NCBI GenBank assembly: GCA_019456305.1
Contig: VRUD01000002.1
Coordinates: 20,118-84,117 of the forward strand
Origin: Cytophagales bacterium
Lineage (GTDB): Bacteria; Bacteroidota; Bacteroidia; Cytophagales; VRUD01
Length of the DNA: 64,000 nt
Reading direction: 5' to 3'
In this document: positions 7,513-55,013 of the stretch, in pieces
Layout: every line of letters starts with the position of its first letter
How positions within the stretch are numbered: the stretch's first letter is position 1
Program-made: the position numbers and the translations under genes
Notes under the pieces: model-generated
Databases searched by the model: none
Seen by the model: the letters and a program-made list of their open reading frames with translations, nothing else
What the model was told of the DNA's origin: nothing

Positions 7513-7597
7513 AAGCCCTTAACTAATGATAACCCGTAGCAATCGTAACTGATTAGTTACATAATTTATTATCTATGTGTAATTAGAAAATTTCATG

Positions 7598-7605
7598 TAC
7601 CTTTG
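7598..7605 (+). promoter_or_regulatory. -7 box TACCTTTG
   Basis: 16 nt upstream of ATG 7621. Confidence 0.45.
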
Positions 7606-7620
7606 TAAAAAAACAGAACG

Positions 7621-7992: not shown

Positions 7993-8052
7993 ATCTTCCT
8001 AAGAAAATATAAAGTGTCTCTGATTCATATCAAACATAACCACTAACAACAA

Positions 8053-9234: not shown

Positions 9235-9257
9235 TGATTTACGATTATCATTTAATA

Positions 9258-21486: not shown

Positions 21487-21590
21487 CATAACTATCTGCT
21501 AAATAGAACGCTGATGACGCTGATAAAACGGATAATCACAGATAAAAAATCAGCGCAAATCAGCTAAATCAGTGTCATCCGCGTTCTATT
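21487..21590. repeat. 104-nt MITE-like element, copy A (overlaps the coaX 3' end)
   Basis: Identical to 40312..40415 except for one base (t/c at the 13th position). 17-nt termini aatagaacgctgatgac / gtcatccgcgttctatt are inverted (16/17). Confidence 0.9.
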
Positions 21591-29000: not shown

Positions 29001-29193
29001 TCTGTGGAAAGTGAACGACCAAACCACGCAGGAACTAATGATTTCGTTTTATTCCAAATGGCTGCAGGTCGAAGATCCAGACGCAGTCGGGGGAGGAGAT
29101 AAGCATAAAGCATTTAAACAAGCGCAATTAGAACTTAAAGAAAAGTATAAACATCCTTATTATTGGGGGGCGTTTGTGATGGTTGGGAACTAA
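26077..29193 (+). CDS. TPR (KLC-type, about 10 units) plus CHAT-domain protein
   Basis: 1038 aa. Repeats 'LNNLATLYSYMGKY..AE.LYL.SLKI.K..LGENHPDYA'. CHAT dyad 'ILHIATHGYF' and 'LVVLSACETGLG', then 'YYWGAFVMVGN'. A repeat-encoded insert sits between the His and Cys. Confidence 0.9.
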   Translation: MKNKTSIHPPIFGELHLALCAIRFAFCVQLFFKLILVLLLSTALSIAYCQLSTSSWQALYDSSDVYYYKGDYLKAAEFLQLALPLAESEFGKDSAYALTVNDLALCYHELGKYSVANTLYLQALDIYKIQLGENHPSYAATIVNIGMVYKDMGQYIKAEKLYLQSKKIYKTTLGENHPEYALVLNNLATLYSYMGKYIDVETLLLESLKIKKKHLGESHPDYASSINNLALLYNTIGHYSKAEELYLQSLKIIKNLLGDNHPKIIRPLYNLAILYTNMGRYSKAKNLFLKALNIVKTHLGIYHPDYAGILLSQADSYKKMGRYSEAEKLYLEAMEIFKTRLEENTPVYAICLNSLSGLYHTLGRYKEAEQLDLKALKIFKTRLGENHPNYASSLLSLANGYKTTGRYSKAEKLYLEANNIVKNHFGTNHPDYAVSLSNLVSVYEKMGEYRKAEMYYQPLMYKYLYHIHVYFPSMNEKEKGAFYETIKGEFEKFYGFAFSTSKFRTAEKERELLANVYNYRLSTKALLFNATNKVRQRILGSNDSTLIQKYRQWRSDKDYLGKLYTLSIAEVKKQSVSIDSLEAQANLLEKELSKNSQLFAKEFDKKIYDWKDVQAQLKEDEAAVEVIRFRKYGTIVEKISFRDTIYHVQKDGFTEKVYYAVLILTTNELKFVVLENGKELEKKYLNNYKNSIKFKASDKDSYEQYWSKIAEALKGINKVWFSPDGVYNQINLATLQNPESGKFLIEEMDVQLVTNTKDLVDDKNFRGFQNLGGLVPEKTASLYGYINYQNTGMQILPGTKKEVSMIDSLLKLNKRKSKIYQWNAATEDAIKSEQSPTILHIATHGYFLSDNEISGRNIFGIDSIYYVMNPLLKSGLIFSSSSLTSPSTQGRTGKPLSPTGGKGDGKVSPRRDLGGGGKMAGVLTAYEAMNLNLDNTELVVLSACETGLGEVQHGEGVYGLQRALQTAGARSVIMSLWKVNDQTTQELMISFYSKWLQVEDPDAVGGGDKHKAFKQAQLELKEKYKHPYYWGAFVMVGN

Positions 29194-37306: not shown

Positions 37307-37519
37307 ATGAATAATATGCAAATCCAAATTTCTACAGAAATAGATAAAAAACTTAAGCAGGTTTCAGATATATCAGGCTTCAGTGAAAAAGATATTATAG
37401 AAAGAGCTATTTTGTTTTACCTTGATACTATCCAGAAACAAATGCAATTAAAAAGTGAGTTTAAAGAATGGGATATGTTGAGTGATGAAGCTCTTGAAAA
37501 TTTTGAGAATATATTATGA
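37307..37519 (+). CDS. Ribbon-helix-helix antitoxin (MazE/CopG-like)
   Basis: 'MNNMQIQISTEIDKKLKQVSDISGFSEKDIIERAILFYLD'. ATG 37307 is preferred; the track's TTG at 37274 lies inside the TATTTTTG box (37269..37276). 4-nt overlap with the toxin gene. Confidence 0.7.
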   Translation: MNNMQIQISTEIDKKLKQVSDISGFSEKDIIERAILFYLDTIQKQMQLKSEFKEWDMLSDEALENFENIL

Positions 37520-37860
37520 AAAAAGGTGAAATCTGGTTAATTGAGATTCCACCTGTTAATGGTCGTGAACAGCGTGGCACAAGACCAGCCCTTATCTTAT
37601 CAGTATTGGAAGCAAATATAGTGATAATTCTTCCTTTTACTTCTAATCTTCAAGCATTGAGATTTCCTCACACAATTGAAATAAAACTTTCAAACAAAAA
37701 TGGTTTAAATTCAAATTCCATTGCCTTAGTGTTTCAAATAAGAGCGATTGATAAAAAGAGATTGAAAAATAAAATAGGCACATTAGAAACTAAAATTATA
37801 CAAAGAATTAATACAATGATTATTGATATTCTAAATTTAAAAATCAAACCAAAACAATGA
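37516..37860 (+). CDS. mazF: MazF/PemK-family endoribonuclease toxin
   Basis: 114 aa. 'KKGEIWLIEIPPVNGREQRGTRPALILS', '..LPFTSN'. Confidence 0.85.
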   Translation: MKKGEIWLIEIPPVNGREQRGTRPALILSVLEANIVIILPFTSNLQALRFPHTIEIKLSNKNGLNSNSIALVFQIRAIDKKRLKNKIGTLETKIIQRINTMIIDILNLKIKPKQ

Positions 37861-39977
37861 TAGATTACACCAAAGATCCGAACGGCATCGCCATTATCAG
37901 CTTCAACATGCCGGATACTGCTGTCAATGTGCTCAATAGGGCATCCATCAGCGCTTTTGAAAAGCACATCAACGAAGCGCTTGCCGACAAATCTGTAAAA
38001 GGGATCATCATTACCTCAAGTAAGCAGGATTTTATCGTTGGCGGAGACCTGAAGTTGATATTCTCTTTAAATGACGCAAAGGAGATCATGAAGATTTCCG
38101 GAAAATTCCATGCCATGCTTCGCAAAATGGAAACGGGTGGCAAGCCGGTGGTGGCTGCCATCAACGGAACTGCACTGGGAGGCGGCTATGAAGTATGCCT
38201 CGCGTGCCACCATCGTATTGCTGTCAATGATCCCAGGATACAGATCGGCTTACCTGAAGTGACGCTGGGATTATTGCCCGGAGGCGGAGGCACACAGCGT
38301 TTGCCGAGGATGATCGGGATACAACCATCTTTACAACCTCTCATGGAAGGCAGGAGAATGAGGCCAGGACAAGCGCTCGAAACCGGAATGGTGGATGAGC
38401 TTGTGTTAACTCCCGAAGAATTGCTCCCCGCAGCAAAAAAGTGGCTGCAAGAAGTCGGAAATGCTGTTCAACCCTGGGACCAGGAAAAATTTAAAATACC
38501 CGGGGGTGGTGTGCAAACGCCCAATAGTGCTATGGTTTTTGGTGCAACTGCCGGTTTGGTGCTGAAAAAAACATATGGCAATTACCCTGCCCCTCACGCT
38601 ATTCTGAACTGTGTGTTTGAAGGGTTGCAATTGCCTTTTGACCGGGCTTTGGTTGTTGAGTCCCGCTATCTTACTAAGTGCGTGTTGTCAAAAGAATCCA
38701 AAAACATGATCCGTACCTTGTTCTTCAGCATGAATGAAGCCAACAAGGGAGCGGCTCGTCCGGCAAACATTCCCAAAACCGTTTTTTTAAAAGTGGGCAT
38801 CCTGGGTGCCGGAATGATGGGTGCAGGTATCGCCTATGTTTCTGCAATGGCGGGCCTGGATGTTGTTTTAAAGGATGTGTCTAAAGAAGCTGCGGAAAAA
38901 GGGAAAAAGTATTCTGCTGACCTGTTGTCAAAACGGCTTTCCAAAAAAAGGATCACACAGGAAAAGATAGATGAAGTGCTGAGCAAAATTCATACAACAG
39001 ATAACCCAAAGGATTTAGCAGATTGTCAATTAGTCATTGAGGCTGTATTTGAGAACCGGGAGCTAAAAGCAGCGGTTACCAAAGAATCTGAATCCGTAAT
39101 GTCTTCAAAAGCTGTATTTGCTTCCAATACCTCTACCCTGCCTATTACCGGTTTGGCAGAAGCATCCTCAAGGCCCGAAAACTTCATCGGTCTTCATTTT
39201 TTTTCGCCTGTAGATAAAATGCAATTGGTGGAGATCATCATCGGCAAAAAGACTTCGGATTATGCTATTGCTATGGCAATAGATTATATCAGGCGAATTA
39301 AGAAAACGCCCATTGTGGTTAACGATGGAAGGGGCTTTTTTACATCAAGGGTTTTCAGGACTTACCTGTTTGAGGGTTTTGAGTGCCTTGCCGAAGGTAT
39401 TTCTCCTGCATTCATAGAAAATGCCGGTAAGCAGGCCGGCATGCCGGTTGGCCCGCTGGCAATCACCGATGAGGTAAGCATTGACCTGCTCTATAAGATC
39501 AACAAACAAACCGAAAAGGATACCGGGCAAAAACATGATGGCGCTGCTATCAAAGTAATGAATAGATTTATTGAGGAATTTAAGCGATCAGGTAAAAAGG
39601 AAGGCAAGGGGTTTTATGAATATCCGAACGGTGAGAAAAAATACCTTTGGCCTGAGCTGTCAAAATATTTTCCTTTGGCTGACAAGCAGCCGGATGCAAG
39701 AGAAGTTGGAAAACGCTTCTTGCATATCCAGGCGCTTGAGGCAGTAAAGGCATTTGAGGAGCACATCGTTACAACCCCTGCAGATGCTGATATCGGCTCT
39801 ATCCTGGGCATTGGCTTTCCGCCTTACACCGGTGGTGCATTGTCTTATATTGATATGATAGGCTTGAAACAATTTGTGGAAGAATGTAATGTTTTGGCTG
39901 ATAAATATGGCAAGCGTTTTAAACCTACTGACGGGTTGAAAAAAATGGCTGCGAAGGGAGCAAGTTTTTACAATTAA
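37857..39977 (+). CDS. Bifunctional enoyl-CoA hydratase / 3-hydroxyacyl-CoA dehydrogenase (FadB/FadJ-like)
   Basis: 706 aa. 'AAINGTALGGGYEVCLACHHR', Rossmann 'VGILGAGMMGAGIA', 'GLHFFSPV'. ATGA overlap with the mazF stop. Confidence 0.95.
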   Translation: MIDYTKDPNGIAIISFNMPDTAVNVLNRASISAFEKHINEALADKSVKGIIITSSKQDFIVGGDLKLIFSLNDAKEIMKISGKFHAMLRKMETGGKPVVAAINGTALGGGYEVCLACHHRIAVNDPRIQIGLPEVTLGLLPGGGGTQRLPRMIGIQPSLQPLMEGRRMRPGQALETGMVDELVLTPEELLPAAKKWLQEVGNAVQPWDQEKFKIPGGGVQTPNSAMVFGATAGLVLKKTYGNYPAPHAILNCVFEGLQLPFDRALVVESRYLTKCVLSKESKNMIRTLFFSMNEANKGAARPANIPKTVFLKVGILGAGMMGAGIAYVSAMAGLDVVLKDVSKEAAEKGKKYSADLLSKRLSKKRITQEKIDEVLSKIHTTDNPKDLADCQLVIEAVFENRELKAAVTKESESVMSSKAVFASNTSTLPITGLAEASSRPENFIGLHFFSPVDKMQLVEIIIGKKTSDYAIAMAIDYIRRIKKTPIVVNDGRGFFTSRVFRTYLFEGFECLAEGISPAFIENAGKQAGMPVGPLAITDEVSIDLLYKINKQTEKDTGQKHDGAAIKVMNRFIEEFKRSGKKEGKGFYEYPNGEKKYLWPELSKYFPLADKQPDAREVGKRFLHIQALEAVKAFEEHIVTTPADADIGSILGIGFPPYTGGALSYIDMIGLKQFVEECNVLADKYGKRFKPTDGLKKMAAKGASFYN

Positions 39978-39982
39978 CAGTT

Positions 39983-40133
39983 GAGTACACTCTAATAAGT
40001 CCAAAAAATAAAAATGCCACTAAAACACCAAAGCACTAAATCCCACAAAACCCTGAAAATCAATTAGTTAATTTTTAGTGGGATTTTGTGCTTTGGTGCT
40101 TTTGTGGCAAAAAAGACTTTTTAGAGTGGACTC
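39983..40133. repeat. Second copy of the same long-stem palindromic family, directly after the fadB-like stop
   Basis: gagtacactctaataagtc ... gccactaaaacaccaaagcactaaatcccacaaaa ... ttttagtgggattttgtgctttggtgcttttgtggc ... gactttttagagtggactc. Confidence 0.8.
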
Positions 40134-40235: not shown

Positions 40236-40309
40236 GCCCTCTTAGCTCAGTTGGTTAGAGCGGATGACTGTTAATCATTAGGTCGTAGGTTCGAGTCCTA
40301 CAGAGGGCG
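40236..40309 (+). tRNA. tRNA-Asn (GTT)
   Basis: Hand-folded cloverleaf. Acceptor GCCCTCT/AGAGGGC, D arm GCTC/GAGC, anticodon stem GATGA/TCATT with loop CTGTTAA, T arm GTAGG-TTCGAGT-CCTAC, discriminator G. CCA is not encoded. Confidence 0.95.
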
Positions 40310-40311
40310 CT

Positions 40312-40415
40312 CATAACTATCCGCTAAATAGAACGCTGATGACGCTGATAAAACGGATAATCACAGATAAAAAATCAGCGCAAATCAGCTAAATCAGTGT
40401 CATCCGCGTTCTATT
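40312..40415. repeat. 104-nt MITE-like element, copy B (starts 3 nt after tRNA-Asn)
   Basis: See copy A; 103/104 identical by eye. Confidence 0.9.
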
Positions 40416-40445
40416 ACTTTTTTCCGTTAATTTTTTAGAGGATAC

Positions 40446-41111: not shown

Positions 41112-43889
41112 TCAAACTATATCATCATCCTGCTTTTTATTTTTCAGATCCCTGCCTCTTAAATATCTCCTCAAAAACAACTGCACCGGCAGCAAGGTTG
41201 AAGCCAGTACCAAATTTAACAAGGTTTTGATGATAGGAGCGCTTCCAACATATTCTTCGTACAAAGGTTCGCACAAATTTTGGATAAATTCAAAAATAAC
41301 GAATAATGTGATATACACCATTATAGTGACTGTTCTGCCTTTACTGCCTTTACGGCTTGCTAATAAAGTACCTCCTATCAAAAGCATAAAAAACAGCAAC
41401 TGTGCGCTGTAGAACCAGCCAGTTTCCCAATAAGGCGGGGTAATAGTAATTGCAACAAAGATCCCATTTTGCCAAATGCCGTCATTATTGGAAGCTTTGA
41501 CCTTAAAAACATAATCGCCAGGGTCAATGTTTGTGTATTTTGCAATTCTGTTGCCGGCATCGCAATAGGTCCAGTCCTTGTCAAAATCTGCCAGCTTGTA
41601 GGCATATTGATTTTTCAGGGGGTCTGTAAAATCAAGTGCAGCAAATTCAAAGACGAAATTATTTTCATCATAGCTTAGCGTAACATTATTATTTTCATTG
41701 AGATCTTTAACAATTTGCCTGTTTTTAACTTTAAATTTTGTAATGGCGATGGGGGGTAGGTGTGGGTTGTCCACTACACTATCAGGATGAAAGATGTTAA
41801 ATCCGTGCATGCCTCCAAACACCATCTCACCTGTTTTTAATTTGCAATGTGCCTTGGTAAATTCGTTGTTCTGTAATCCGTCAGATTCGGTATAGATTCG
41901 AAAGGTTTCTCTTTCGGTGTCAAACTTCACAAGACCTTTATCAGTGCTTATCCATAGATAGCCGTGATCATCTTCCAGCATGCCTCCGATATTATTGCCG
42001 GGCAGTCCGTTTTCTGTTGTATAATGGCTGAAATTTCTTTTTTCTTTATTGAACTTGTTTAACCCATTGCTACCAATCCATACAATACCTCTGCTGTCTT
42101 CAAAAATTACAGTTATCGCATCACCCCCACCCCAAAATGTCGTTGAATCATGGGGTTTGTAAATAAAATGTTCTACTTCATCGTTTTCAAGGTTCATGCG
42201 GCATAATTTTCCATCAGTGGTGCCAACCCAAAGGTAACCTTTGCTGTCTTCATATATTTTTTTTGATAAACTATACAGGTAAGATAATTCATGAAGTTGT
42301 TTTTGGTAATATTTGCCTTTTTGTTTATCAAACAATTTTACACCCTGATTTCCCCATATTCCAACCCAAAAATTACCTTTGCTGTCTTCAAATAGATCAT
42401 GTATCCAGTCATAGTTATTATTATATATGAAAAAGCTATCGTTTTTTTTATCATACCTGAGCAATCCGTTGTTAGCTGCCCACAAACCAACCCACATAGT
42501 GCCGGATCTATCTTTATAAATCACTTGAACTTGATCTCTTTTGGTGTTAGCCGTATTAAACCGGTAATTTTTAAAAGTTCCATTTTTGCGGTCAAATACG
42601 TCCAGTCCTTTATCTTCCGTTCCGATCCACAGATTTCCATCATCATCTTCTATTATTGTTCTTATCCTGTTTGATGAAAGGGAATTATTATCTCCAACAA
42701 TATGCCTGTAATGTTTAAATTTGTACTTGTTCCTGCTGTATTTGCTGATGCCCTGGCCGGTTCCAATCCAAATATTTCCAGCTCTGTCTTCGTATATTTT
42801 ATTGATAGTATTATCAATTAGTGAACCCGGATCATTTTGATTATGTGGAGTGAATAATAGCTTGTTTTTTAAAACATCATACCTACAAACTCCTTCTTCT
42901 CTCATATAACCACCAAACCAGATCAATCCACGCCTATCTTCAATTATATCATACACTGGTCCGACAGGGAATTTTTGAAAATCCTGACGTTTAGGAAAGT
43001 GTTTGAAAAAATCAGGTCGATTTGCCAGATATGTATACCAATGTTGATCCCCAAGCCAGAGGTTTCCATAACGATCATTTAAAATACAACTTAAACATCC
43101 ACCTTTAATACCGGGAATTTCTTTGCTGCCCCTCTCATATATTTTCATTGTTTCCTCATCTCTATCAAATTTTATAAGACCAATACCACAACTCACGATC
43201 CACAAATTACCTCCCTTGTCTTCGTATATTTGATGTGCAGGATAATTTGGATGTCTATACTCACTGCCATGTTCAAAATGTTTAAACCTTGTTCCGAGCC
43301 CCGCCAAAGGCGGGGAGGGATCTCTTTTTTTATCACTAGTTCCTTTATTAACAGATCCTTTGCTGTCGCTCAGGACAAGCTTATTCAACACCCCATCTGC
43401 GGTCTCAATCCATAGTATTCCGCTTTTGTCGGCATAGATTTCCCTTACATAGTTATCGCTTAAGCTATTTTTATTATCCACATCATGGAAATAGTTAATG
43501 AACAGCTCATTGTTCCTGTCGTATTTATTCAGTCCTTTAAGAGTACCAATCCATAAATTACCGTAAATATCTTCTGTGATGGAAGAAATATAGTTGTCAG
43601 AGATCGTAGTGGAATCATGTGGTTTGTTAGTGTAAATTTGAAACTGGTATCCATCATACTTATTTAATCCTTCATAGGTTCCGATCCACAAAAACCCATA
43701 TTTATCCTGGAAGATATCTAATATCTCATTGTTGCTTAATCCGTCTGCTGTAGTGAGATTATCGAACTTTGATTGGGTGTCTTTTATTTTAATTACTTTG
43801 AACCTGTTACTGGAGTGATTGTAGGTTTGGGCTGTAATTTTTTCTCCCCAAAAAATGCCTGCAAGGATAAGTAGTGTGTTGATTTTCAT
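41112..43889 (-). CDS. Reg_prop/Y_Y_Y sensor paralog A ending in the conserved 3-TM module
   Basis: 925 aa. Signal peptide, many 'DGL.NN.I..I.ED..GN.WIGT..GL.K(Y/F)' blades, Y_Y_Y 'NNFVFEFAALDFT..NQYAYKL..FDKDW'. The C-terminus is 'WFYSAQLLFFMLLIGGTLLASRKG..FEFIQNLCEPLYEEYVGSAPIIKTLLNLVLASTLLPVQLFLRRYLRG'. Confidence 0.9.
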   Translation of the reverse strand: MKINTLLILAGIFWGEKITAQTYNHSSNRFKVIKIKDTQSKFDNLTTADGLSNNEILDIFQDKYGFLWIGTYEGLNKYDGYQFQIYTNKPHDSTTISDNYISSITEDIYGNLWIGTLKGLNKYDRNNELFINYFHDVDNKNSLSDNYVREIYADKSGILWIETADGVLNKLVLSDSKGSVNKGTSDKKRDPSPPLAGLGTRFKHFEHGSEYRHPNYPAHQIYEDKGGNLWIVSCGIGLIKFDRDEETMKIYERGSKEIPGIKGGCLSCILNDRYGNLWLGDQHWYTYLANRPDFFKHFPKRQDFQKFPVGPVYDIIEDRRGLIWFGGYMREEGVCRYDVLKNKLLFTPHNQNDPGSLIDNTINKIYEDRAGNIWIGTGQGISKYSRNKYKFKHYRHIVGDNNSLSSNRIRTIIEDDDGNLWIGTEDKGLDVFDRKNGTFKNYRFNTANTKRDQVQVIYKDRSGTMWVGLWAANNGLLRYDKKNDSFFIYNNNYDWIHDLFEDSKGNFWVGIWGNQGVKLFDKQKGKYYQKQLHELSYLYSLSKKIYEDSKGYLWVGTTDGKLCRMNLENDEVEHFIYKPHDSTTFWGGGDAITVIFEDSRGIVWIGSNGLNKFNKEKRNFSHYTTENGLPGNNIGGMLEDDHGYLWISTDKGLVKFDTERETFRIYTESDGLQNNEFTKAHCKLKTGEMVFGGMHGFNIFHPDSVVDNPHLPPIAITKFKVKNRQIVKDLNENNNVTLSYDENNFVFEFAALDFTDPLKNQYAYKLADFDKDWTYCDAGNRIAKYTNIDPGDYVFKVKASNNDGIWQNGIFVAITITPPYWETGWFYSAQLLFFMLLIGGTLLASRKGSKGRTVTIMVYITLFVIFEFIQNLCEPLYEEYVGSAPIIKTLLNLVLASTLLPVQLFLRRYLRGRDLKNKKQDDDIV

Positions 43890-43996
43890 AATGGAATATA
43901 CTTCAGAACATTCACCCTATGGAATTACCAATAGATCGGGAAGCGAAGCTATTCTACAGGGTAAATGTTTGCGTTTTAGCGATTTACAAAATCGCT

Positions 43997-46663
43997 TTAC
44001 ATCAATTCCCCTTTATCCTTTCCTTTCTGCTGTTTACCTCTCAGATATTTCCTCAAAAACAACTGCACCGGCAGCAAAGTTGAAGCCAGTACCAAATTTA
44101 ACAAGGTTTTGATGATAGGAGCGCTTCCAACATATTCTTCGTACAAAGGTTCACATAAATTTTGGATAAACTCAAAGATCACAAACAAACAGATATAAAC
44201 GAGTATGGTGATTGTGCGTGTTCCGGCACCTTTACGGCTGGCAATCAAGGTGCCTCCGATGAGCGCCATGAAGAACAGCAGCTCGGCGCTGTAAAACCAC
44301 CAGGATTGCCAGTAAGGTGGTTTGATGGTGAAGAAAAAGGTTGTAGGTTTCCAATTCCAAACACCATCATTATTGCAGGCGATAACCTTGAATGTGTATT
44401 TTCCCGGATTAAGGTTGGAGTATGTGAAGTGTGTTTCCTGAGTTTCGGATGACCATTTTTCATCAAATCCTTTAAGCTGATAACGGTAATGCACTTTTTC
44501 AGGTATGGTCAGAGAGATACCTATGTATTCGAAGGTGAGATGGTTTTTGTTGTAGGGTAGCACTAAACCAATTGGCATGCCGCTGTTTACAGAATCACAG
44601 TAAGGATGCCAATCTTCTTCACCTGAGAAGAGTTTTATTGCAGTAATATGTGTTAAGGGCTCAATTGTATTGGGTATATCTGCATTGGGATTGTATTTTA
44701 CTGCGCCTTTAGTAGTACCAAACCATAAATTTCCTTTTTTATCAATGCAGATATTAGACCCACATTCGGTCCCCCTGAAACCCTCTTGTATACCATAATG
44801 TTTAAATTTTTTCTTGCCTGTTTTGTTGTAAAGGGCTACATCAAATTTATTAATCCCTCTACCGGTAGCAGCCCATAAATTTCCGCTACGGTCAAAAATT
44901 AGTGATGCGATGATGTCATTGCTTAAGCCATCTTGAGTTGTAAAGCTGTCAATAACTTCTAAAGTTTTTTTATGATGAAATTTGCATTTAAAAATACCTT
45001 CTCCGTCAGTTCCAAACCACAGATTGCCTTGCAGGTCCTGGGTGATACTAAATACTGCTTTATAAGTGAAACTTTCATTTGCAGAAATGTTTTTAATAGT
45101 ATCCCCATTAAATACATTGACGCCACCACCATAGGTTCCGAACCACATATTGTAAGATATGTCTTCATAGATGCATAAAATTCTATTCGGATTTCTGCCA
45201 CCTTCCACTCTAAAATACTCTTTCTTTTTTCCGTCATATCTATATGCTCCGGCACCTCCTGAGCCAAACCACATATTACCTGAATGATCCTCATAAACAC
45301 ACATCCAGCCATTGAAAGGAACGCTAATCAATTCATTGTTATGAAATTGAAAACCTCCTGTTCTCGCCATATCATGCGAAAACCATATATCTCCGTTTTT
45401 ATCCTCTGCAACGGAAGTAATTCTGCTAATGGGCAAACCCTCTATTGAAGTAAAATTTGTAAACCCGCTATTGTCAGCACTTAAAGAATCGGGGCTATAC
45501 TTACTGATCCCCCCTTCGGTCGCGAACCAACTATTACCATTACGGTCTTCAATAATCCCATTGATCGTATTATTTACCAATCCAACTTCTTCATTATAAT
45601 AAGTAAACTTTTCGCCATTATATTTACAAACGTCACTGCCAAAAGTTCCAATCCAGATATTTCCTTCCCTATCATGTAATATTGACCACGTGGAATTAAT
45701 AGGGAGTCCCTGCTTTGTTGTAAAGTTGGTAAAAACCTTACCGTCATATTTGAATATTCCTCTTTCAAATGTTGCAATCCAGATATTGCCTTCAACATCT
45801 TTTGTCAACCCGATCATTGGAGAACCAAGTGCAAAACTTGTGATGTTATCTCCATCATGCCCATGTGGGTCAAATTTTTTTATGCTTCCACTCCAGGACA
45901 CACACCAAATACTACCATCATCATCTTCAACAATTCCAAAGCTTGCTGCAATTGAGCTTACCTTAATAACAGTATCACCCGTTGTTCCTTTCGGATCATA
46001 TTTAAAAAGTCCGCCACGCAATGCTCCAAACCACAGATTATCCTCATTATCCTGCATCATTGCACCGATCACGTTGCTTTTATATTTGCTGTTGATCTGA
46101 TAATTTTTAAATAAAATTGTATCAACCCCGCCTGTTTGCGGGGCTGAGTCTTTTTGATCAATGGTAGAACCTTGCGAATAATATGAAATAAGCTTGTTTG
46201 TGCCAACCCATAAATTTCCATCTTTATCTACAAGCAATGACCTGACGAAATTATAGGGTAATCCATTTTTAGTTGTATAAGCAGTAAATTTTGTACCATC
46301 AAATTTACTTAAGCCATTTGTTGTACCGAACCACATATTCCCATCATGATCTTCAGCAATAGAAAGTACCCTGTAATTGAGCAAGCCGGCTTTATCCGTA
46401 AAATTTTTAAAAGTTTTACCGTCAAACCGGCTCACACCGCCATGGGTGCCAAACCAGATGTAGCCCCTGCTGTCCTGGTACATGCATTCAATGGCTGATT
46501 GCACCAGGCCGTTTTCTACGGTGTAATAGGAAAAGTTATGCTGCCCTTCTGCTGGGCGGACAGATTGAGCCCATGATTCAAGATTAAAAATTGTTGAACA
46601 AAGCAAAATCCCGATGATAATCTGGAAAAATAGGAGAATGGATATGATTTGTAATTTTTTCAT
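43997..46663 (-). CDS. Reg_prop/Y_Y_Y sensor paralog B ending in the conserved 3-TM module
   Basis: 888 aa with the same architecture. Y_Y_Y 'NHLTFEYIGISLTIPEKVHYRYQLKGFDEKW'. C-terminal module as in paralog A. Confidence 0.9.
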   Translation of the reverse strand: MKKLQIISILLFFQIIIGILLCSTIFNLESWAQSVRPAEGQHNFSYYTVENGLVQSAIECMYQDSRGYIWFGTHGGVSRFDGKTFKNFTDKAGLLNYRVLSIAEDHDGNMWFGTTNGLSKFDGTKFTAYTTKNGLPYNFVRSLLVDKDGNLWVGTNKLISYYSQGSTIDQKDSAPQTGGVDTILFKNYQINSKYKSNVIGAMMQDNEDNLWFGALRGGLFKYDPKGTTGDTVIKVSSIAASFGIVEDDDGSIWCVSWSGSIKKFDPHGHDGDNITSFALGSPMIGLTKDVEGNIWIATFERGIFKYDGKVFTNFTTKQGLPINSTWSILHDREGNIWIGTFGSDVCKYNGEKFTYYNEEVGLVNNTINGIIEDRNGNSWFATEGGISKYSPDSLSADNSGFTNFTSIEGLPISRITSVAEDKNGDIWFSHDMARTGGFQFHNNELISVPFNGWMCVYEDHSGNMWFGSGGAGAYRYDGKKKEYFRVEGGRNPNRILCIYEDISYNMWFGTYGGGVNVFNGDTIKNISANESFTYKAVFSITQDLQGNLWFGTDGEGIFKCKFHHKKTLEVIDSFTTQDGLSNDIIASLIFDRSGNLWAATGRGINKFDVALYNKTGKKKFKHYGIQEGFRGTECGSNICIDKKGNLWFGTTKGAVKYNPNADIPNTIEPLTHITAIKLFSGEEDWHPYCDSVNSGMPIGLVLPYNKNHLTFEYIGISLTIPEKVHYRYQLKGFDEKWSSETQETHFTYSNLNPGKYTFKVIACNNDGVWNWKPTTFFFTIKPPYWQSWWFYSAELLFFMALIGGTLIASRKGAGTRTITILVYICLFVIFEFIQNLCEPLYEEYVGSAPIIKTLLNLVLASTLLPVQLFLRKYLRGKQQKGKDKGELM

Positions 46664-46798
46664 CCTGCTTAAATTTTAATGACTGTCCGTTTGTTTATAC
46701 CTATCTGTTTTATTTAGCGCATGACTGCATGCATCCATCCCGAGTACTCGGGAATCATGCTAAGTATAGTTATTAGGTATAACAAAGCGGATAACCAT

Positions 46799-49700
46799 TT
46801 AAATTTTAATCCCAATAACCAACACATCATCTATCTGCTCCTCATTGCCTTTCCATTTTTCAAAGGTAATATCTAATTTTTCACGCTGCTGTTCCATTGA
46901 AAGATCCTGTATTTCAAGGATAAGCTCTTTGAATCGTTTGTAGGAAAACTTTCTTCCTTCAGAGCCACCAAATTGATCAGCATAGCCATCTGAAAACAGG
47001 TAGATGCTGTCCCCTTTTTTTAAATTAATGGTATGGTCTGTAAAAATTTTTGTTCTGCCCCTGCTATCTGTTTCGCCCACCTTATCAATGCCAATCGGAA
47101 AACTGTTGCCTTTGACCTCACACAGATCATCACCAAAGGTGCGGACTTTATCATTATGCCCCAAGTCCCCCAGCTCGTGGATGATGTTTTTTCTAATTAT
47201 GTATAAAGGATTGTAAGCGCCAGCATATTGTAGTGAACGGGCATGCCCGTTCACTACACCTATACTGCAAATAGCAATATCCATCCCATCTTTTGTTTCA
47301 GAGCCCTCACCTGTTTGTTTTAAGGCATTCACAATACCATCATTGAGCTCTCCCAATATCTTTGCCGGTTGGTTAATTTTCCTTTTATTTATTATTTCAT
47401 TTAACAGGTCATTGCCTATCATGCTCATAAAGGCCCCGGGCACGCCATGGCCGGTGCAATCAACTGCCGCTATAATAAAAGAGGCCCCCCTATCAGTCCC
47501 CCCTAAATCCCCCCCAAAGGGGGGGACTTTGCCATCGCTTTTGCCTTGGGGAAGGGTAGAGTGTTGGCCAGTTCTCCCCCCTTTGGGGGGAGTTAGAGGG
47601 GGGCTGATGGGGCTGCTAAACCAATAAAAATCTCCACTCACAATATCCTTTGGCTTAAACAAAATGAATGACTGCGGAAAAACTTTATTGACCACATCAA
47701 CAGGAGGGAGAATAGCTTCTTGTATCAACTTTGCATAATTGATGCTATCTGTAATATCCTTATTCCTTTGTTCAATAACTTCATTGGTCTGAGCAATTTC
47801 CTCATTCAAAAAGTTTAACTCTTCATTCGTTATTTTCAATTCATCTCTTTGTACCGTTAATTCTTCTTTTTGCATTAGTATTTCCTCTTTCTGCGTCATA
47901 ACTTCAGCAGTACGTATTTTCACTTGATGCTCTAACTTCTTTTTTGCCTTTTGTAAATTTCTCACACGCCAACTATAAAAACCATAAATACTGCTCCCAC
48001 CGGTAATAAAACATAGCATATAAAACAATAAGGTTTGCCAAAAAGGAGGGGTGATGATAAAACTAAAAGTGGTTGGCTTTTTATTCCAGACTCCATCATT
48101 ATTACATGCTTTTACTTTTAGGATGTATTTTCCGGGCGGAATATTGGAATAGGTTACTTCATTTTTTTTTGTAATTGGCGACCAGTGTTGATCAAACCCG
48201 TCTAATATCCACTGATATCGCACTTTTTCCGGAATTTTAGTACTGATCCCGACAAAATCAAAAGTAAGATGATTTTGATTGTAGGATAGTTTCAAATTCA
48301 AGGGTAAAGCAAACCAGGGAGAAAAGCTATCAATCTGATAGTGGGAGCGCCATTTTGCACTGTTTACTTCTTCAAAAAACAGTTTTATTCCTGTAATGTA
48401 TGTTCTTGCCTCAACCATATTAGGCTTATCTTCTTTAGGGGAATATTTGTTGACGTCATTCACTGTACCAAACCACAGATTTCCTTTTGAGTCTCTGTAA
48501 ACAGCATTATTATTACACTCAACGCCCCTGAATCCATCTAATATAGAATATTGTTTAATTTTATAAGAGCCATTACTACTATCCGGGATAATTTTGTTGA
48601 TCCCGTTATTTGTCCCTGCCCAGATATTTCCCTCATCATCAACTATGAGGGAAACAATTGCGGCATTGGTTAAGCCGTCTTTAGTAGTAATATAAGACCA
48701 TGAATTATCAGGATGCAATATTGAAATCCCCTCGCCATAAGTGCCAAACCAACTATTTTGATAATTATCTTCAATAATTGATATAACACGGTGGTCGCTT
48801 AAACCTTCAATAAATTTTCCTACTAAATTGGGTAAGTTTTTTTTAAATTTCTTCACATGCTCCTTTTTAATAAAATGCGTGAATTTTTCGTTGGAAATAT
48901 CATCACTTGCTTTGTTGAGCAAACTTACACCTTCGCTCGTACCAAGCCATATTCTTCCTTTGCTGTCTTCATAAATTTTATTAACAGTGTTCCCAATGAT
49001 CCCTGTTTGAGTGTTATAATTAATAAATGAACCGGGTTTGTTTGAAAGGGAGTATTCCGGATTCAAGTATAAAAATTTAACAGCGCCTCCTCCTTCAGTA
49101 CCTACCCATAAATTTCCCCTGCTATCCACGAGCATTGAAAATATGTGATCGCTTGTCAGCCCATCAAGTTCAATACAGTTTTTGTTTCCATCGGCACAGG
49201 ATTTTTTTCTTTTATAAATTAGAAACTTATTCCCCGGTGTGGTGATGTCTTTTTCAATTAATTTATTGATACCTCCTCCTAAGGTACCAATCCAAATATC
49301 TCCGTTCTTATCATCAACAATAGCATGGACAACGCTTTCACCGATTCCCTGATCCCATGAATATTGTGTAAAATTGTTTCCATCAAAATTAAATACACCG
49401 CCACCCCAGTTGCCAAACCACATTTGCCCATATTTGTCTTCATGAATGGAAACCGCTGATTTAATGTTTAGATAGGTAAAAATCTTACCACTAAACATAG
49501 AAGCTCCACCGCTATATCCACCAAACCAAAGATTACCCTCACGGTCTTCCATAATAGAAATGATATGGTTATTACATAAACCTTGCCCCTCGTGATACCG
49601 TAAAATAGCGCCGGTTTGGGGATCATATTTTTCTACACCAAAACCGTCATGACCGAACCAGATATTACCTGCCTTGTCTTCAAAAATATCCCAGACACGG

Positions 49701-50584
49701 TTGGTACTTAGGGCATCCTGTAATGGAAAAGGTAAAAAGGAAACTTTACTAAACCTTTGAGGTTTAGTAAAGTTATTATTCAAAGAATCAATATTACTGC
49801 TTTTATAAAAATTAATACTTTCTTCAGGTAAATATGAAATCCCCCCTCTCCAACTGCTGACCCAGATATTTCCCTTTTTGTCTGGGAGTATGGCTCTTAC
49901 AAAATTATTGCTTAAACCCTGTTGTCGTGTAAAGTGTATGAAATCCGGATTAGCCACTTCATTTTGATAATAATCTGCTAATAAAAGATTTATTCCCCCA
50001 CCCCAGGTGCCAAACCAAATATTTTGATTCATATCTTTAACAATGGTGTTGACATAGCTATTGCTCAAGCCTTCATTTTTAGTATAATTTGTGATCTTAA
50101 AAGTATCTTTTGGGAATGTAGTATGGTTGGCAGTCAGCACACTAACACCTGCCGGTGTTCCAATCCAGATATTTCCACTTTTATCATTAAGTAGGGCAAG
50201 GGCAGTATTATCAACCAAACCAAACTCAGTAGTGATATTCTTAAAAACTTTTCCATCAAAGATGCTTACACCTCCATCTGTCCCAAGCCACATACGCCCT
50301 TTGTTGTCTTCAATAATTGCATAAACAAAGTTATTGGCAAGGCCATCATCAGTTGTAAAGTTTTTAAAAGAAACACCATCATAGCTGCTGACACCACCTT
50401 CTGTTGCAAACCAGATGTATCCCCTGCTGTCTTCATACATTGCATTTACCTGCGACTGTGCCAGGCCATTTTCAACCGTAAAATTTTTGAAGTTGTATTG
50501 CTGTGCAGAGCAGTAAGCAGTACGCAGTATGCAATAAGCAATTAACAGAGCAAGATAAATTGTAGGAACGATATTTCTTAGCAT
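46799..50584 (-). CDS. Reg_prop/Y_Y_Y sensor paralog C with one TM, a coiled coil and a SpoIIE/PP2C phosphatase domain
   Basis: 1261 aa. Y_Y_Y 'NHLTFDFVGISTKIPEKVRYQWILDGFDQHW'. TM 'LLFYMLCFITGGSSIYGFYSW'. Heptad-rich linker. PP2C 'SGDFYWF','AAVDCTGHGVPGAFMSM','DGMDIAIC','FSDGYADQFGG'. Confidence 0.9.
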   Translation of the reverse strand: MLRNIVPTIYLALLIAYCILRTAYCSAQQYNFKNFTVENGLAQSQVNAMYEDSRGYIWFATEGGVSSYDGVSFKNFTTDDGLANNFVYAIIEDNKGRMWLGTDGGVSIFDGKVFKNITTEFGLVDNTALALLNDKSGNIWIGTPAGVSVLTANHTTFPKDTFKITNYTKNEGLSNSYVNTIVKDMNQNIWFGTWGGGINLLLADYYQNEVANPDFIHFTRQQGLSNNFVRAILPDKKGNIWVSSWRGGISYLPEESINFYKSSNIDSLNNNFTKPQRFSKVSFLPFPLQDALSTNRVWDIFEDKAGNIWFGHDGFGVEKYDPQTGAILRYHEGQGLCNNHIISIMEDREGNLWFGGYSGGASMFSGKIFTYLNIKSAVSIHEDKYGQMWFGNWGGGVFNFDGNNFTQYSWDQGIGESVVHAIVDDKNGDIWIGTLGGGINKLIEKDITTPGNKFLIYKRKKSCADGNKNCIELDGLTSDHIFSMLVDSRGNLWVGTEGGGAVKFLYLNPEYSLSNKPGSFINYNTQTGIIGNTVNKIYEDSKGRIWLGTSEGVSLLNKASDDISNEKFTHFIKKEHVKKFKKNLPNLVGKFIEGLSDHRVISIIEDNYQNSWFGTYGEGISILHPDNSWSYITTKDGLTNAAIVSLIVDDEGNIWAGTNNGINKIIPDSSNGSYKIKQYSILDGFRGVECNNNAVYRDSKGNLWFGTVNDVNKYSPKEDKPNMVEARTYITGIKLFFEEVNSAKWRSHYQIDSFSPWFALPLNLKLSYNQNHLTFDFVGISTKIPEKVRYQWILDGFDQHWSPITKKNEVTYSNIPPGKYILKVKACNNDGVWNKKPTTFSFIITPPFWQTLLFYMLCFITGGSSIYGFYSWRVRNLQKAKKKLEHQVKIRTAEVMTQKEEILMQKEELTVQRDELKITNEELNFLNEEIAQTNEVIEQRNKDITDSINYAKLIQEAILPPVDVVNKVFPQSFILFKPKDIVSGDFYWFSSPISPPLTPPKGGRTGQHSTLPQGKSDGKVPPFGGDLGGTDRGASFIIAAVDCTGHGVPGAFMSMIGNDLLNEIINKRKINQPAKILGELNDGIVNALKQTGEGSETKDGMDIAICSIGVVNGHARSLQYAGAYNPLYIIRKNIIHELGDLGHNDKVRTFGDDLCEVKGNSFPIGIDKVGETDSRGRTKIFTDHTINLKKGDSIYLFSDGYADQFGGSEGRKFSYKRFKELILEIQDLSMEQQREKLDITFEKWKGNEEQIDDVLVIGIKI

Positions 50585-50623
50585 ATTTGTAAATTTAGAA
50601 CCATGGATATATGAAAAATCAAT

Positions 50624-53410
50624 CTACACCAACCCATCTTCAACTCCTCCTTGTTTTTTCTCTTTACCTCTCAGATATTTCCTCAAAAACAACTGCACAG
50701 GCAGCAAAGTTGAAGCCAGTATCAAATTTAAAAAAGTCTTTATGATAGGAGCGCTGCCGACATATTCTTCATATAAAGGTTCGCACAAATTCTGAATAAA
50801 CTCAAAGATCATAAACAAACAAATATAAACCAGGATAGTAACGGTCCGGTCTTTTACTCCTCTGCGCCTGGCTAATAATGTTCCGCCAATTAAAAGCATA
50901 AAAAACAGCAGTTGGGCGCTGTAAAACCAGCCTGTTTCCCAGTATGGTGGTTTGACTATGAAGGAAAAGGTGGTGGGTTCTTTGTTCCAAACACCGTCAT
51001 TATTGCATGCTTTTACCTTTATCGTGTATTTACCTGGAGGAATATTGGAATAAGTGGCAATATGTTCCTTTCCGGGAGGGGACCAGGCATTGTCCATTCC
51101 TTCCAGCTTGTATTGGTATTTTACTTTTTCAGGGATGGTTAAACTGATACCAACAAAATTAAAAGTTAAATGATTTTTGTAGTAGGGAAGTTTCAGATTA
51201 AAAGGTAACCCAGTATTTGCATGAATACTATCAGAAAAGTTTAAATAGTTAAAATCTTTTAAAAAAAGCCTAATCCTGGTAATATGTGTTTTCGGTTGGT
51301 TGGTATTTATTTTGTCTTTTCGGGGATCAAATTTTGTAATTCCCTTAACAGTTCCAAACCATAAATTGCCTTTTGTATCACTAAAGATGGAATTGCATTC
51401 AATACCTGTAAATCCTTCTAATTTGCCATAATGCTTAATTTCAATTTCACCTGTAGTGTTAAACTTATTGATATTAAATCTGTCAATACCTTTATTTGTA
51501 CCGGCCCAAAGATACCCCACTTCATCTATTACCATCGAAATAACACTATTGGAACTTAAGCCATCGGCTTGCATAATGGTTTGAAAATATTTACCATCTT
51601 TTCTTTCATCATTATATTTGCTTACACCACCTCCTAAAACACCAAACCAGACGTTACCTTCATTATCTTCCTGTATCGTTGTAACAATTGTACCTTCTAA
51701 ACCTAAATTGTCTTTTTTAGTAAAACCTTTCATAGTTTTACCGTCATATTTATTTATTCCACCATATGAAGCCATCCAAACATTTCCTTTACTATCAACT
51801 AATATATCATTTATATATCTTTGAACTAACCCATCATTTAAAGTAAAATTAGTAAACATGGGAGGGGATCCCTCGCTGTCGCCCAGGACAAGCTTTGAAA
51901 CGCCACCATTTGTTCCAATCCACAAACACCCTTCACTGTCTTCGTCAATTGAAATAATTCTGTTAGTGATCATTCCGTCATCTCTTGTAAAAATGGTCAA
52001 TTCATTAAATTCTTTTTTAGGATCATACTTGCATAGCCCTGCCGGTGTGCCTATCCAGATATTGCCTTTCCTATCCTTAAGCAAAACAGTGACAACATTG
52101 ACCGGTAATCCTTCATTTGTAGTATAATTTGTAAAAGTTAGAGAGGAGCTAAGCTTACTCAACCCGCCTTCAGTAGCAAACCAGATATTTCCATCCTGAT
52201 CTTCTGTGAATGAACTTACTTTATGATTTATGATACCATCTTTTTCATAATAATGAGTAAACGCATCCCCACTGAATTTGCATAAACCACTTCCACTTGT
52301 CCCTATCCAGATGTTGCCTTCATTATCTTCGAGTAAGCTTCTTACAGAATTTCCGCTTAATCCATTTTCCTCCCTGTAATTTTTAAATCCTACACCCGAT
52401 TTTAAATCGGATGTACCAGCACGATCGTATTTGCTAACACCACCATTACAGCCAAACCAAAGATTTCCCACTTCATCTTCAATTATAGTAAGCACCATAT
52501 TACCTGCCAATCCATCTGCTACAGAATAATGTTCAAAATTTTTGCCATTATAATAACTCACCCCTGTATAATAGTCGCCCATCCAAATAGACCCTTTGTT
52601 ATCTTCAAGCAGAGCACAAATAAATCTGTGTTCAAGGCCTTGTTGTGTGGTAAAAGTTTCAATATTTTTGCCTGCCTCGCCCGCCTGCCATGTTTGGGCT
52701 TTGCCTTTGGAATGTACAGACGCCCAATTTGGGCGTCTCTTGTCGGGGAGCGTATCAGGGTAATTATACCTGAATAAACTTGATTTTACCCCAAACCATA
52801 TATTATTGTTTTTATCCTGCATCACTGCCCAGACCTGGCTTTCTTCCAAATTATTTTTTTTACTGAAATTTGTGAATTCCTTTCCATTGTAAGTACAGAT
52901 GCCTTTGGTGGTGGCTAACCATAACACGCCCTTGTGATCTTCTATTATTTTTAATATGATGTTACTATTTAAACCATCTTTTACGGTATAATTAATAAAG
53001 TACAGACGCCCAATTTGGGCGTCTCTGTTAACATCATCATTCTTTTCTTCACCAGAACTGCCACTGCTACTGCCTTTATATTTCCCCAATCCACCGCTGT
53101 CCATGCCAATCCAGATATTTCCTTTTGAATCTTCCATGATTGAATAAATACGATCATTACCCAATCCGTCTTTTGAAGTGAAAATAACGAAATTAGTACC
53201 ATCAAAGCGACATAAACCGCCTCCGTAAGTTCCAATCCATAAATAACCTTTACTGTCCTGCAATAATGCATAGACCTGAGATTGCGGTAATCCATTTTCT
53301 ATGGTATACCAGGAAAAGTTGTATTGTTGAGCAGTGCAGTGAGCAGTACGCAGTATACAATAAGCAATTAACAGAGCAAGATAAATTGCAGGAACGATAT
53401 TTCTTAGCAT
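50624..53410 (-). CDS. Reg_prop/Y_Y_Y sensor paralog D ending in the conserved 3-TM module
   Basis: 928 aa. Y_Y_Y 'NHLTFNFVGISLTIPEKVKYQYKLEGMDNAW'. C-terminal module as in A and B. At least four repeat-encoded inserts. Confidence 0.9.
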   Translation of the reverse strand: MLRNIVPAIYLALLIAYCILRTAHCTAQQYNFSWYTIENGLPQSQVYALLQDSKGYLWIGTYGGGLCRFDGTNFVIFTSKDGLGNDRIYSIMEDSKGNIWIGMDSGGLGKYKGSSSGSSGEEKNDDVNRDAQIGRLYFINYTVKDGLNSNIILKIIEDHKGVLWLATTKGICTYNGKEFTNFSKKNNLEESQVWAVMQDKNNNIWFGVKSSLFRYNYPDTLPDKRRPNWASVHSKGKAQTWQAGEAGKNIETFTTQQGLEHRFICALLEDNKGSIWMGDYYTGVSYYNGKNFEHYSVADGLAGNMVLTIIEDEVGNLWFGCNGGVSKYDRAGTSDLKSGVGFKNYREENGLSGNSVRSLLEDNEGNIWIGTSGSGLCKFSGDAFTHYYEKDGIINHKVSSFTEDQDGNIWFATEGGLSKLSSSLTFTNYTTNEGLPVNVVTVLLKDRKGNIWIGTPAGLCKYDPKKEFNELTIFTRDDGMITNRIISIDEDSEGCLWIGTNGGVSKLVLGDSEGSPPMFTNFTLNDGLVQRYINDILVDSKGNVWMASYGGINKYDGKTMKGFTKKDNLGLEGTIVTTIQEDNEGNVWFGVLGGGVSKYNDERKDGKYFQTIMQADGLSSNSVISMVIDEVGYLWAGTNKGIDRFNINKFNTTGEIEIKHYGKLEGFTGIECNSIFSDTKGNLWFGTVKGITKFDPRKDKINTNQPKTHITRIRLFLKDFNYLNFSDSIHANTGLPFNLKLPYYKNHLTFNFVGISLTIPEKVKYQYKLEGMDNAWSPPGKEHIATYSNIPPGKYTIKVKACNNDGVWNKEPTTFSFIVKPPYWETGWFYSAQLLFFMLLIGGTLLARRRGVKDRTVTILVYICLFMIFEFIQNLCEPLYEEYVGSAPIIKTFLNLILASTLLPVQLFLRKYLRGKEKKQGGVEDGLV

Positions 53411-53546
53411 ATTTGGTAATGACCCCAGTGAAATGTTCTGCTGCGCAGAATTTCACGTGGTAAACTAATGATTTTTTCCACGACTGAAAGGTAAGAATTA
53501 TTCAAAATTAAATTATAAAGTAAAAAGAAATAAATAAATTTGTGCT

Positions 53547-55013
53547 ATGAAACAAGAAATAATAGAACTCCACGAAGATGTATCGGGTTCTCCCCTCTAT
53601 AGCGAAGATTTTGCCCCGGTGCCTCAGGACAAACGTACATGGGATACCTGGAACATTGCCGCAATATGGGTAGGCATGGCCGTATGCATCCCTACCTACA
53701 TGCTTGCCAGCAGCCTGATAAACCAGGGAATGAACTGGTGGCAGGCGCTGTTAACAATTCTGTTAGGTAACGTTATTGTTCTGATCCCAATGATATTAAA
53801 TGCGCATGTAGGTACCAAATATGGTGTTCCTTTACCGGTATTCCTTCGCCTGAGTTTTGGAATAAAAGGGGCTGAGCTGGCTGCGCTTTTAAGAGGCCTG
53901 GTAGCATGCGGATGGTTTGGCATTCAAACCTGGATCGGTGGCGCTGCCATATACCAGCTTCTCCTGGTGGTATTGCCTGATCTGGCACACAGTCCTTCGT
54001 TGGGCGATTTTATAGGTCTTAACCTGGGCCAGTTTGCCTGTTTTATCCTGTTCTGGCTTATTAATATGTATATTGTTTACAAAGGCATCGAATCCATAAA
54101 ATTGCTGGAAACCTGGGCCGCACCTTTCTTATTGATCATCGGGCTCTGCTTATTAGCCTGGGCATGGATCAAAGTAGGCTCGCTCGGACAAATATTAGAC
54201 GCTTCTTATGAGCTATCCAAAGAATCAGGGGTTAGCTTTTGGGCGATTTTCTGGCCGGGATTAACAGCCATGGTTGGGTTCTGGGCTACCCTGTCACTCA
54301 ATATTCCTGACTTTACCCGTTATGCCAAATCTCAAAGAGACCAGGTGCTTGGGCAGATTATCGGGCTGCCTGCTACTATGGTCCTTTACTCTTTTATAGG
54401 CATTGCCGTTACAAGCGCCACGTTCATCATTTATTCTGAACCGATCTGGGATCCGGTGGTGCTCATGGGAAAATTTGATACCGCCTCTGTGGTGATCCTG
54501 TCAATGATCGGGCTTACTGTGGCAACTTTATCAACAAATATCGCTGCCAACATAGTCGCCCCGGCAAACAGTTTCGCTAATCTTATGCCCAATAAGATCA
54601 GTTTTAAAATGGGAGGATATATTACCGGCTTCATCGGTATCATTATTTTTCCCTGGAAGCTGATGGCTGACCCTGAAGGATATATTTTCAAATGGCTGAT
54701 CGCCTATTCTGCCCTTTTGGGAGCCTTGGCCGGCATTATGATATGCGATTATTATATACTTCGCAAAAGGGTGATTGACCTTGCTGAGCTTTTTAAACAG
54801 GAAGGTAAATACAAAGGATGGAATAAAGCCGCCTGGATATCATTTGTTATCTCCATCATTCCAACCGTACCGGGATTTTTGATCAAAGTAGAGCTTGTAT
54901 CAAAAGAGAGCATTCCTTATTTTTTAGCTGAATTATATTCTTATGCGTGGTTTGTTACTTTTGGTATTTCTTTTGTTTTGTATTATTTTTTATCTAGAAG
55001 GAAAGTAGCTTAG
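53547..55013 (+). CDS. NCS1-family nucleobase/allantoin/hydantoin:cation symporter
   Basis: 488 aa, 12 TM. 'DFAPVPQDKRTWDTWNIAAIWVGMAVCIPTY', 'NIPDFTRYAKSQRDQ'. Confidence 0.9.
   Translation: MKQEIIELHEDVSGSPLYSEDFAPVPQDKRTWDTWNIAAIWVGMAVCIPTYMLASSLINQGMNWWQALLTILLGNVIVLIPMILNAHVGTKYGVPLPVFLRLSFGIKGAELAALLRGLVACGWFGIQTWIGGAAIYQLLLVVLPDLAHSPSLGDFIGLNLGQFACFILFWLINMYIVYKGIESIKLLETWAAPFLLIIGLCLLAWAWIKVGSLGQILDASYELSKESGVSFWAIFWPGLTAMVGFWATLSLNIPDFTRYAKSQRDQVLGQIIGLPATMVLYSFIGIAVTSATFIIYSEPIWDPVVLMGKFDTASVVILSMIGLTVATLSTNIAANIVAPANSFANLMPNKISFKMGGYITGFIGIIIFPWKLMADPEGYIFKWLIAYSALLGALAGIMICDYYILRKRVIDLAELFKQEGKYKGWNKAAWISFVISIIPTVPGFLIKVELVSKESIPYFLAELYSYAWFVTFGISFVLYYFLSRRKVA

Follow-up and report, generated by a model that had tools for sequence, protein, structure and literature searches.

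The window examined here is a 64,000-nucleotide (nt) stretch of the genome of a Cytophagales bacterium (GenBank assembly GCA_019456305.1, contig VRUD01000002.1, positions 20,118 to 84,117 of the forward strand). It includes a tandem array of four paralogous genes, designated A, B, C and D, which occupies positions 41112–53410 on the minus strand (Table 1). The 3' ends of three of the four paralogs (A, B and D) carry a short block that is nearly identical between A and B, and the origin of this block is the subject of the present analysis.

Products of all four genes matched Pfam models PF07494 and PF07495, i.e. the combination of Reg_prop and Y_Y_Y domains found in HTCS-type periplasmic sensors. 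In the periplasmic sensors of the hybrid two-component systems (HTCS) of Bacteroidetes, such as BT4663, Reg_prop propellers are followed by a Y_Y_Y domain and a transmembrane (TM) segment. A–D are similarly built from a signal peptide, tandem Reg_prop repeats, Y_Y_Y and then a membrane span. However, HisKA, HATPase, REC and HTH output domains were absent from A, B and D in Pfam and NCBIfam searches, and these proteins end instead in a three-helix module, whereas the only output domain in C is SpoIIE/PP2C. As the defining output domains are missing, A, B, C and D are not HTCS kinases. Comparison of sequences and domains further showed that C has neither the three-helix module nor the block.

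Table 1. Features of the four-gene array. Positions are those of the window; aa, amino acids; ORF, open reading frame; pS, proportion of differing synonymous sites.
Feature	Position	Strand	Description	Basis
Paralog A	41112–43889	minus	925 aa; Reg_prop beta-propeller, Y_Y_Y and C-terminal 3-TM module; without output domain	ORF, Pfam
Paralog B	43997–46663	minus	888 aa; architecture as in A	ORF, Pfam
Paralog C	46799–50584	minus	1261 aa; propeller, Y_Y_Y, single TM and SpoIIE/PP2C phosphatase	ORF, Pfam
Paralog D	50624–53410	minus	928 aa; architecture as in A and B	ORF, Pfam
3-TM module of A	41112–41450			
3-TM module of B	43997–44335			
3-TM module of D	50624–50960			
Probable conversion tract, A	41163–41294 extended; core 41168–41270	minus		mismatch map, codon and dS tests
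Probable conversion tract, B (partner of that in A)	44045–44176; core 44050–44152	minus		sequence comparison
D copy of the block, probably partly homogenised	50675–50806	minus	pS 0.40 to B and 0.47 to A; adjacent TM1–TM2 0.73–0.85	
B–D sub-island	44033–44091 (B); 50663–50721 (D)	minus	59 nt, 1 mismatch	
A–D TM1 codons (internal control)	41359–41439 (A); 50871–50951 (D)	minus	27/27 residues identical, 14/81 nt differ	
C 5' island	50490–50589	minus	100 nt, 6 mismatches to D; diverged flanks	
D 5' island (partner of that in C)	53316–53415	minus		sequence comparison

The module at the ends of A, B and D comprises about 100–110 aa and closes with a short basic tail; searches of the three proteins with Pfam and NCBIfam models gave no match to it. 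On the basis of hydropathy and charge, it is predicted to begin with PPYW(E/Q)..WF and TM1, followed after a basic loop by TM2, the last residues of which are FEF; an acidic loop, CEPLYEEYVGSAP, then leads to TM3, which closes with LLPVQLFL and precedes the basic tail. The block codes for the stretch from the FEF of TM2, through the acidic loop and TM3, to the first part of the basic tail. The acidic loop between TM2 and TM3 is short and predicted to be periplasmic. No other peptide of these proteins is as strongly conserved as the one encoded by the block.

A word-indexed protein search with the module as query returned only three fragments, and closer relatives were obtained by an exhaustive search of cluster representatives. 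With a module profile, about 400 representatives were found at E≤1e-3; among the best 150 of these, the module usually forms the very C-terminal end of a protein of ~820–1000 aa. An alignment of 28 sequences, which represent about 24 loci of different genomes (module-bearing loci include L001–L021 and L053), revealed a PPYW.TWWF motif, EF in TM2, S/A-P at the opening of TM3, and P-x-E/Q in TM3 as conserved features. Polar residues are thereby kept within the helices, namely the E of FEF in TM2 and P-x-E/Q in TM3. No neighbouring gene recurred at all of the module-bearing loci examined, and hence no conserved candidate partner was identified among them; shared neighbours were confined to small groups of loci, of which the largest includes named Marivirga records.

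Comparison of positions 41163–41288 in A with 44045–44170 in B showed 4 mismatches in 126 nt (A positions 41167, 41196, 41271 and 41274), with the longest perfect run being 74 nt (41197–41270). The D copy at 50675–50800 differs at 14 of 126 nt from B and at the same number from A. The initial annotation, made from the sequence by eye, had reported the A–B and B–D counts, the length of the perfect run and the encoded peptide, and all were reproduced exactly. The best-defined tract, referred to as the core, is 103 nt long with a single A–B mismatch, and the extended tract is 132 nt with five.

The propeller and Y_Y_Y regions upstream share only ~45–60% nt identity between A and B in 30-codon windows (51% overall, ungapped), and the extreme C-terminal tails of the two proteins are unrelated, as had also been noted by eye. 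On both flanks of the block, A–B differences return at every third base or more. This divergence on both sides indicates that the tract is a patch and not the result of a crossover. An 85-nt pattern derived from the block matched only the A and B copies and was not found in any of 100 shuffles. A diagonal scan of the 12.6-kb array detected ≥85% identity over 60 nt only at the block (A, B and D), at TM1 of A and D, and at the 5' ends of C and D. The B–D sub-island (Table 1) is offset toward the 3' (tail) side of the A–B tract, where A keeps private sequence.

The island at the 5' ends of C and D consists of 5 nt upstream of the ATG and the first 32 codons, which encode the signal peptide MLRNIVP.... 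A signal peptide of the C/D type is present also on a B-like gene in the metagenomic contig L132. When the paralogs were compared in pairs, perfect matches of more than 20 nt were confined to the block (74 and 28 nt for A–B; 36 and 22 nt for B–D) and to the 5' island of C and D, where they measure 31 and 21 nt.

Synonymous divergence was estimated from Nei-Gojobori counts. In the A–B block (45 codons), pS is 0.20 (number of substitutions per synonymous site, dS, 0.23), as compared with a pS of 0.83 in the adjoining 47 codons of TM1–TM2. The 34-codon core shows one A–B difference in 24.7 synonymous sites (pS ~0.04), and 11 and 10 differences for A–D and B–D, respectively; the A–B similarity of the core is significant even against the family's own block background (P≤5e-5). 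Thus, synonymous sites are conserved together with the peptide, as the initial annotation stated, and in the dS profile that it proposed as a check divergence does fall at the block, identity not being equally high along the genes. Where A and B have identical residues, the codons are also identical at 39 of 44 positions in the block and at 104 of 241 elsewhere (Fisher p = 1.4e-8). The conversion-tract test proposed at the same time was carried out as a permutation of polymorphic sites, using our own implementation of a GENECONV-type fragment-length test, and detected an A–B run of 9 polymorphic sites (p = 0.0008). When a mismatch penalty was allowed in a GENECONV-like test, the values were p = 0.01 for A–D, 0.004 for B–D and 0.08 for A–B, and the regions were broad and slightly more similar than the remainder. 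The A–D and B–D regions were rejected as discrete tracts and are read instead as differing relatedness along the genes.

The closest pair of paralogs changes from one segment to the next. It is B–D in the propeller (58% nt identity versus 51–52%), A–D in TM1–TM2 at the protein level (proportion of differing nonsynonymous sites, pN, 0.09), and A–B in the block. A different closest pair for each adjacent segment represents phylogenetic incongruence of the kind by which gene conversion is recognised.

Relatives found by the exhaustive module profile search were compared at the DNA level (L132, L133/L134, L135, L048, L049 and L050/L051); samples that contain relatives include ERR10503262, ERZ25043468 and SRR12068625. 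In the blocks of L135, L048 and L049, the peptide is kept (pN 0.05–0.09) while synonymous changes have reached or approached saturation (pS 0.52–1.04). Within a closer group comprising A, B, D, L132 and L133, pS is 0.20–0.53 in the block and 0.73–0.86 between module types in TM1–TM2. The block is therefore shallower than its flank across the whole close group, which indicates older rounds of homogenisation. The TM1–TM2 flank of A is saturated against all other sequences compared.

Taken together, these data are best explained by a short patch of non-reciprocal homologous recombination, i.e. gene conversion, between A and B, laid over an older partial homogenisation that included D; the probability of this reading is estimated at about 85%. 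In the A–B block, synonymous divergence has collapsed, the boundaries are sharp on both sides and the relationships are incongruent with those of the adjoining segments, and the block is not conserved at the nucleotide level between lineages. Conversion or module swapping was the explanation put forward in the initial annotation, and the collapse of pS, the divergence of both flanks and the whole-module swaps in related contigs (see below) bear it out.

Purifying selection on the protein, combined with codon bias but without recombination, would be in line with the peptide being conserved across the family more strongly than any other part of the module, and with a pN of 0.01–0.09 in the block as compared with 0.1–0.25 in the neighbouring helices. 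However, codon usage predicts 17.1 identical codons in the block where 39 are seen, and L135, L048 and L049 encode the same peptide with saturated synonymous sites. TM1 of A and D, with 100% identity of the protein and only 83% of the DNA, indicates what selection on the peptide alone yields. Hence, peptide selection is unusually strong at the block but alone gives about 76–83% nt identity, with conversion adding the remainder, and selection as the sole cause, which had already been judged insufficient from the letters, is highly improbable. Near-invariance of the A–B synonymous sites could also reflect a functional nucleotide-level element within the coding sequence, which had been offered as the alternative to conversion. 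Candidates would be RNA structures, small RNAs derived from the 3' end, attenuators, terminators, protein-binding sites and overlapping ORFs. A weak terminator-like 5-bp hairpin (GCTGCCGGTGCAGT and TGTTTTTG; 41193–41180 in A) is indeed present within the block in A and B. However, relatives with the same peptide are free at third positions (pS 0.52–1.04), variation in an eight-sequence alignment has a period of three, and the D copy itself is different at 14 of 126 nt. RNA structure prediction, which had been suggested as a check, gave folding z-scores of −1.2 to +1.1 for the three copies on both strands, and RNAalifold found 0 compensatory pairs in the eight sequences, with a covariation term of +1.11. 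There is no Rfam match in the block, terminator-like sites are at the level of chance (3 versus 2.7 in shuffles), a promoter and terminator scan of the block was negative beyond the one hairpin, and overlapping ORFs in the A copy, the only one scanned for them, are short (61 aa at most). A nucleotide-level element is thus very unlikely and does not survive from the initial annotation.

The block could also have come from outside the genome, recombination with DNA of another strain or with a mobile segment bearing a paralog having replaced the block or the module in A or B. Such an origin would fit the close relatives with mosaic modules, among them one in which D is replaced by a Fic gene and a remnant with its junction inside the block, and L133, in which a B-type TM1–TM2 is joined to a divergent propeller. 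It is nevertheless improbable, as the nearest known match to the A block is B itself, 2.9 kb away and with one mismatch in 103 nt, whereas all external copies are farther (pS at least 0.35), so that any external donor would have had to be identical to the paralog already in the genome. Arrays of paralogs are prone to mis-assembly, and reads from A and B may in principle be collapsed or mis-joined at a repeat. However, a mis-join cannot make an internal patch that has 4–5 private differences and divergent flanks in both genes, and proteins identical to A and D are present in a public protein collection; an assembly artefact is therefore extremely unlikely. Insertion of a mobile element (a miniature inverted-repeat transposable element, MITE, or an insertion sequence fragment) was rejected, since the block is in frame and homologous at the same position of the module in all 28 aligned sequences; neither inverted nor direct repeats were found at its ends.

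Several observations weigh against gene conversion between A and B or limit what can be concluded about it. With only 45 codons in the block, the errors on dS are wide. With the core equidistant from L133 and from D, the data favour neither A nor B as the donor. The four-gene array of a sister genome was not found, the closest matches in scans of contigs with the module profile being 44% (genome) and 42% at the aa level (metagenome), and exact look-ups of A and B on contigs gave no match. The relatives used are short metagenomic contigs, and the mosaic gene of L132 described below could in principle have arisen during assembly, by chimeric joining across shared k-mers. The evidence from within the window is, however, independent of the metagenomic contigs. 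Finally, L001, from a distant Bacteroidetes metagenome-assembled genome, has two nearby module-bearing paralogs (7583–10309 and 12512–15190) with only mildly raised codon identity at the module (18/25). This mild signal indicates no recent conversion there, and conversion at the module is thus not universal.

Related contigs suggest that exchange at the module has occurred more than once. The mosaic gene of L132 (positions 161–2812) is nearest to C/D in the signal peptide (about 0.7 nt identity), to B in codons 30–260 (88–99% nt identity) and codons 270–960 (55–80%), and to D in the module (94%). By eye alone, the flanks of this gene seem to hold a DUF86/HepT-like gene fragment and a GIY-YIG-like ORF. 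L133 and L134, which are identical contigs from two assemblies, combine a TM1–TM2 of the B type (92–96%) with a propeller that is 55–70% identical to that of B. L050/L051 represent a close relative, with a flank 96.4% identical to positions 53487–53851 of the window and a permease pS of 0.12. In these contigs (L050 positions 1–1950 and L051; compare window 50615–53851), D is replaced by a gene for a Fic-domain protein and a 74-aa remnant, in which a propeller fragment has been fused with the latter half of the block and with a D-type tail; the junction lies inside the block, between ..IAE and YEEYVGSAP... The remnant is followed by a small DUF433-like gene in place of C. The D tail has a pS of 0.28 to L050, as compared with 0.12 for the permease, and the difference is not significant (p = 0.08). 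The remnant copy in L050 may be a pseudogene. As judged by the whole-module swaps and the remnant junction within the block, the family appears to recombine repeatedly at the module.

The pS of 0.20 for the A–B block is close to that of the ortholog-like pair D–L132 (0.23) and lower than that of B–L133 (0.35), the counterparts being short metagenomic contigs and not proven orthologs. A core pS of ~0.04 and an extended-tract pS of 0.20, against 0.12 for the permease on the D side to L050, point to a recent last event. The last exchange between A and B would thus be roughly as old as strain-level divergence, or younger.

In E. coli, homologous recombination has a minimal identity requirement of roughly 20–30 bp. 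Given such a requirement, the confinement of matches longer than 20 nt to the two islands implies that these would be the only efficient substrates for recombination in the array. Purifying selection on the block peptide would keep exact matches above about 20–30 nt, which are almost absent elsewhere between the paralogs, and strand exchange, presumably of the RecA type, would start in the block and halt where flanking divergence sets in. Every conversion would renew the identity, and the block would thereby evolve in concert while propellers and cytoplasmic tails diverge freely. Peptide constraint that preserves identity, conversion that restores it and flank divergence that limits tract length would together form a self-reinforcing loop.

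Concerted evolution by gene conversion is exemplified by tufA/tufB in Salmonella and by rRNA operons. The process has been defined for prokaryotic paralogs in a survey (PMC6053082), and it has been reported in multigene families of M. tuberculosis (PMC13061034, PMC12046097). As in paralogs that evolve in concert, A and B are closer to each other within a bounded tract than to other lineages, synonymous sites are homogenised and the genes are mosaic. Unlike in whole-gene concerted evolution, the tract comprises only ~100–130 nt and one membrane segment, and the genes are otherwise ~50% identical. A literature search for output-less propeller sensors in the context of gene conversion found nothing. 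The process is thus a known one, an ordinary kind of event in bacterial genomes, found here in a new gene family.

In mosaic genes with constant and variable regions, conserved ends serve as recombination anchors. The array resembles these in having conserved 5' (C and D) and 3' (module) islands around divergent sensor regions, which occur in varied combinations in related contigs. It differs in that it includes no silent cassettes, invertase or recombinase gene, or flanking repeats, and nothing in it suggests programmed variation. It is conceivable, though doubtful, that the signal-peptide island at the 5' ends of C and D and the 3-TM island at the 3' ends of A, B and D act as portable homology arms that exchange propeller cassettes among paralogs and strains, making the array one of recombination-driven sensor diversification. 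In that speculative scheme, the anchor would be an output-less three-helix signalling module that might signal via a common partner in the membrane, for which the PP2C paralog C would be one candidate.

The array provides an example of peptide constraint and conversion reinforcing each other, with a constant segment of ~100 nt in genes whose ligand-sensing domains are ~50% identical. That several sensors are kept identical at the module suggests a shared interaction partner, and this uncharacterised three-helix module in propeller sensors without an output domain is the more interesting residue of the analysis, along with the possibility that sensor domains are shuffled by way of the conserved gene ends. 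In practice, orthology cannot be read from the 3' ends of the A, B and D genes, and short-read assemblies are likely to break or become chimeric there.

Other repeats were observed elsewhere in the window. A 112-nt repeat occurs at 21487–21598 and 40312–40423, the two copies being 96% identical. It has imperfect 23-nt terminal inverted repeats AATAGAACGCTGATGACGCTGAT, folds into an extended hairpin (DNA z = −4.8) and looks like a MITE or an element of the repetitive extragenic palindrome (REP) type; the copy at 40312–40423 lies directly against the 3' end of tRNA-Asn(GTT) (40236–40310). A near-perfect intergenic palindrome of ~100 nt at 40010–40112, with arms of the GCCACAAAAGCACCAAAGCAC type (DNA fold z = −7.6), yields spurious matches to plant miRNA families in Rfam and has relatives near 5749–5890 and 13175–13267, which form a second family of hairpin repeats. 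The first 4 nt of a FadB-like enoyl-CoA hydratase/3-hydroxyacyl-CoA dehydrogenase gene (37857–39977) lie within an ORF for a MazF/PemK-type toxin (37516–37860). Eight 126-nt coding repeats (26431–27383) lie within an ORF of 1038 aa (26077–29193), and their 42-aa period looks TPR-like by eye.

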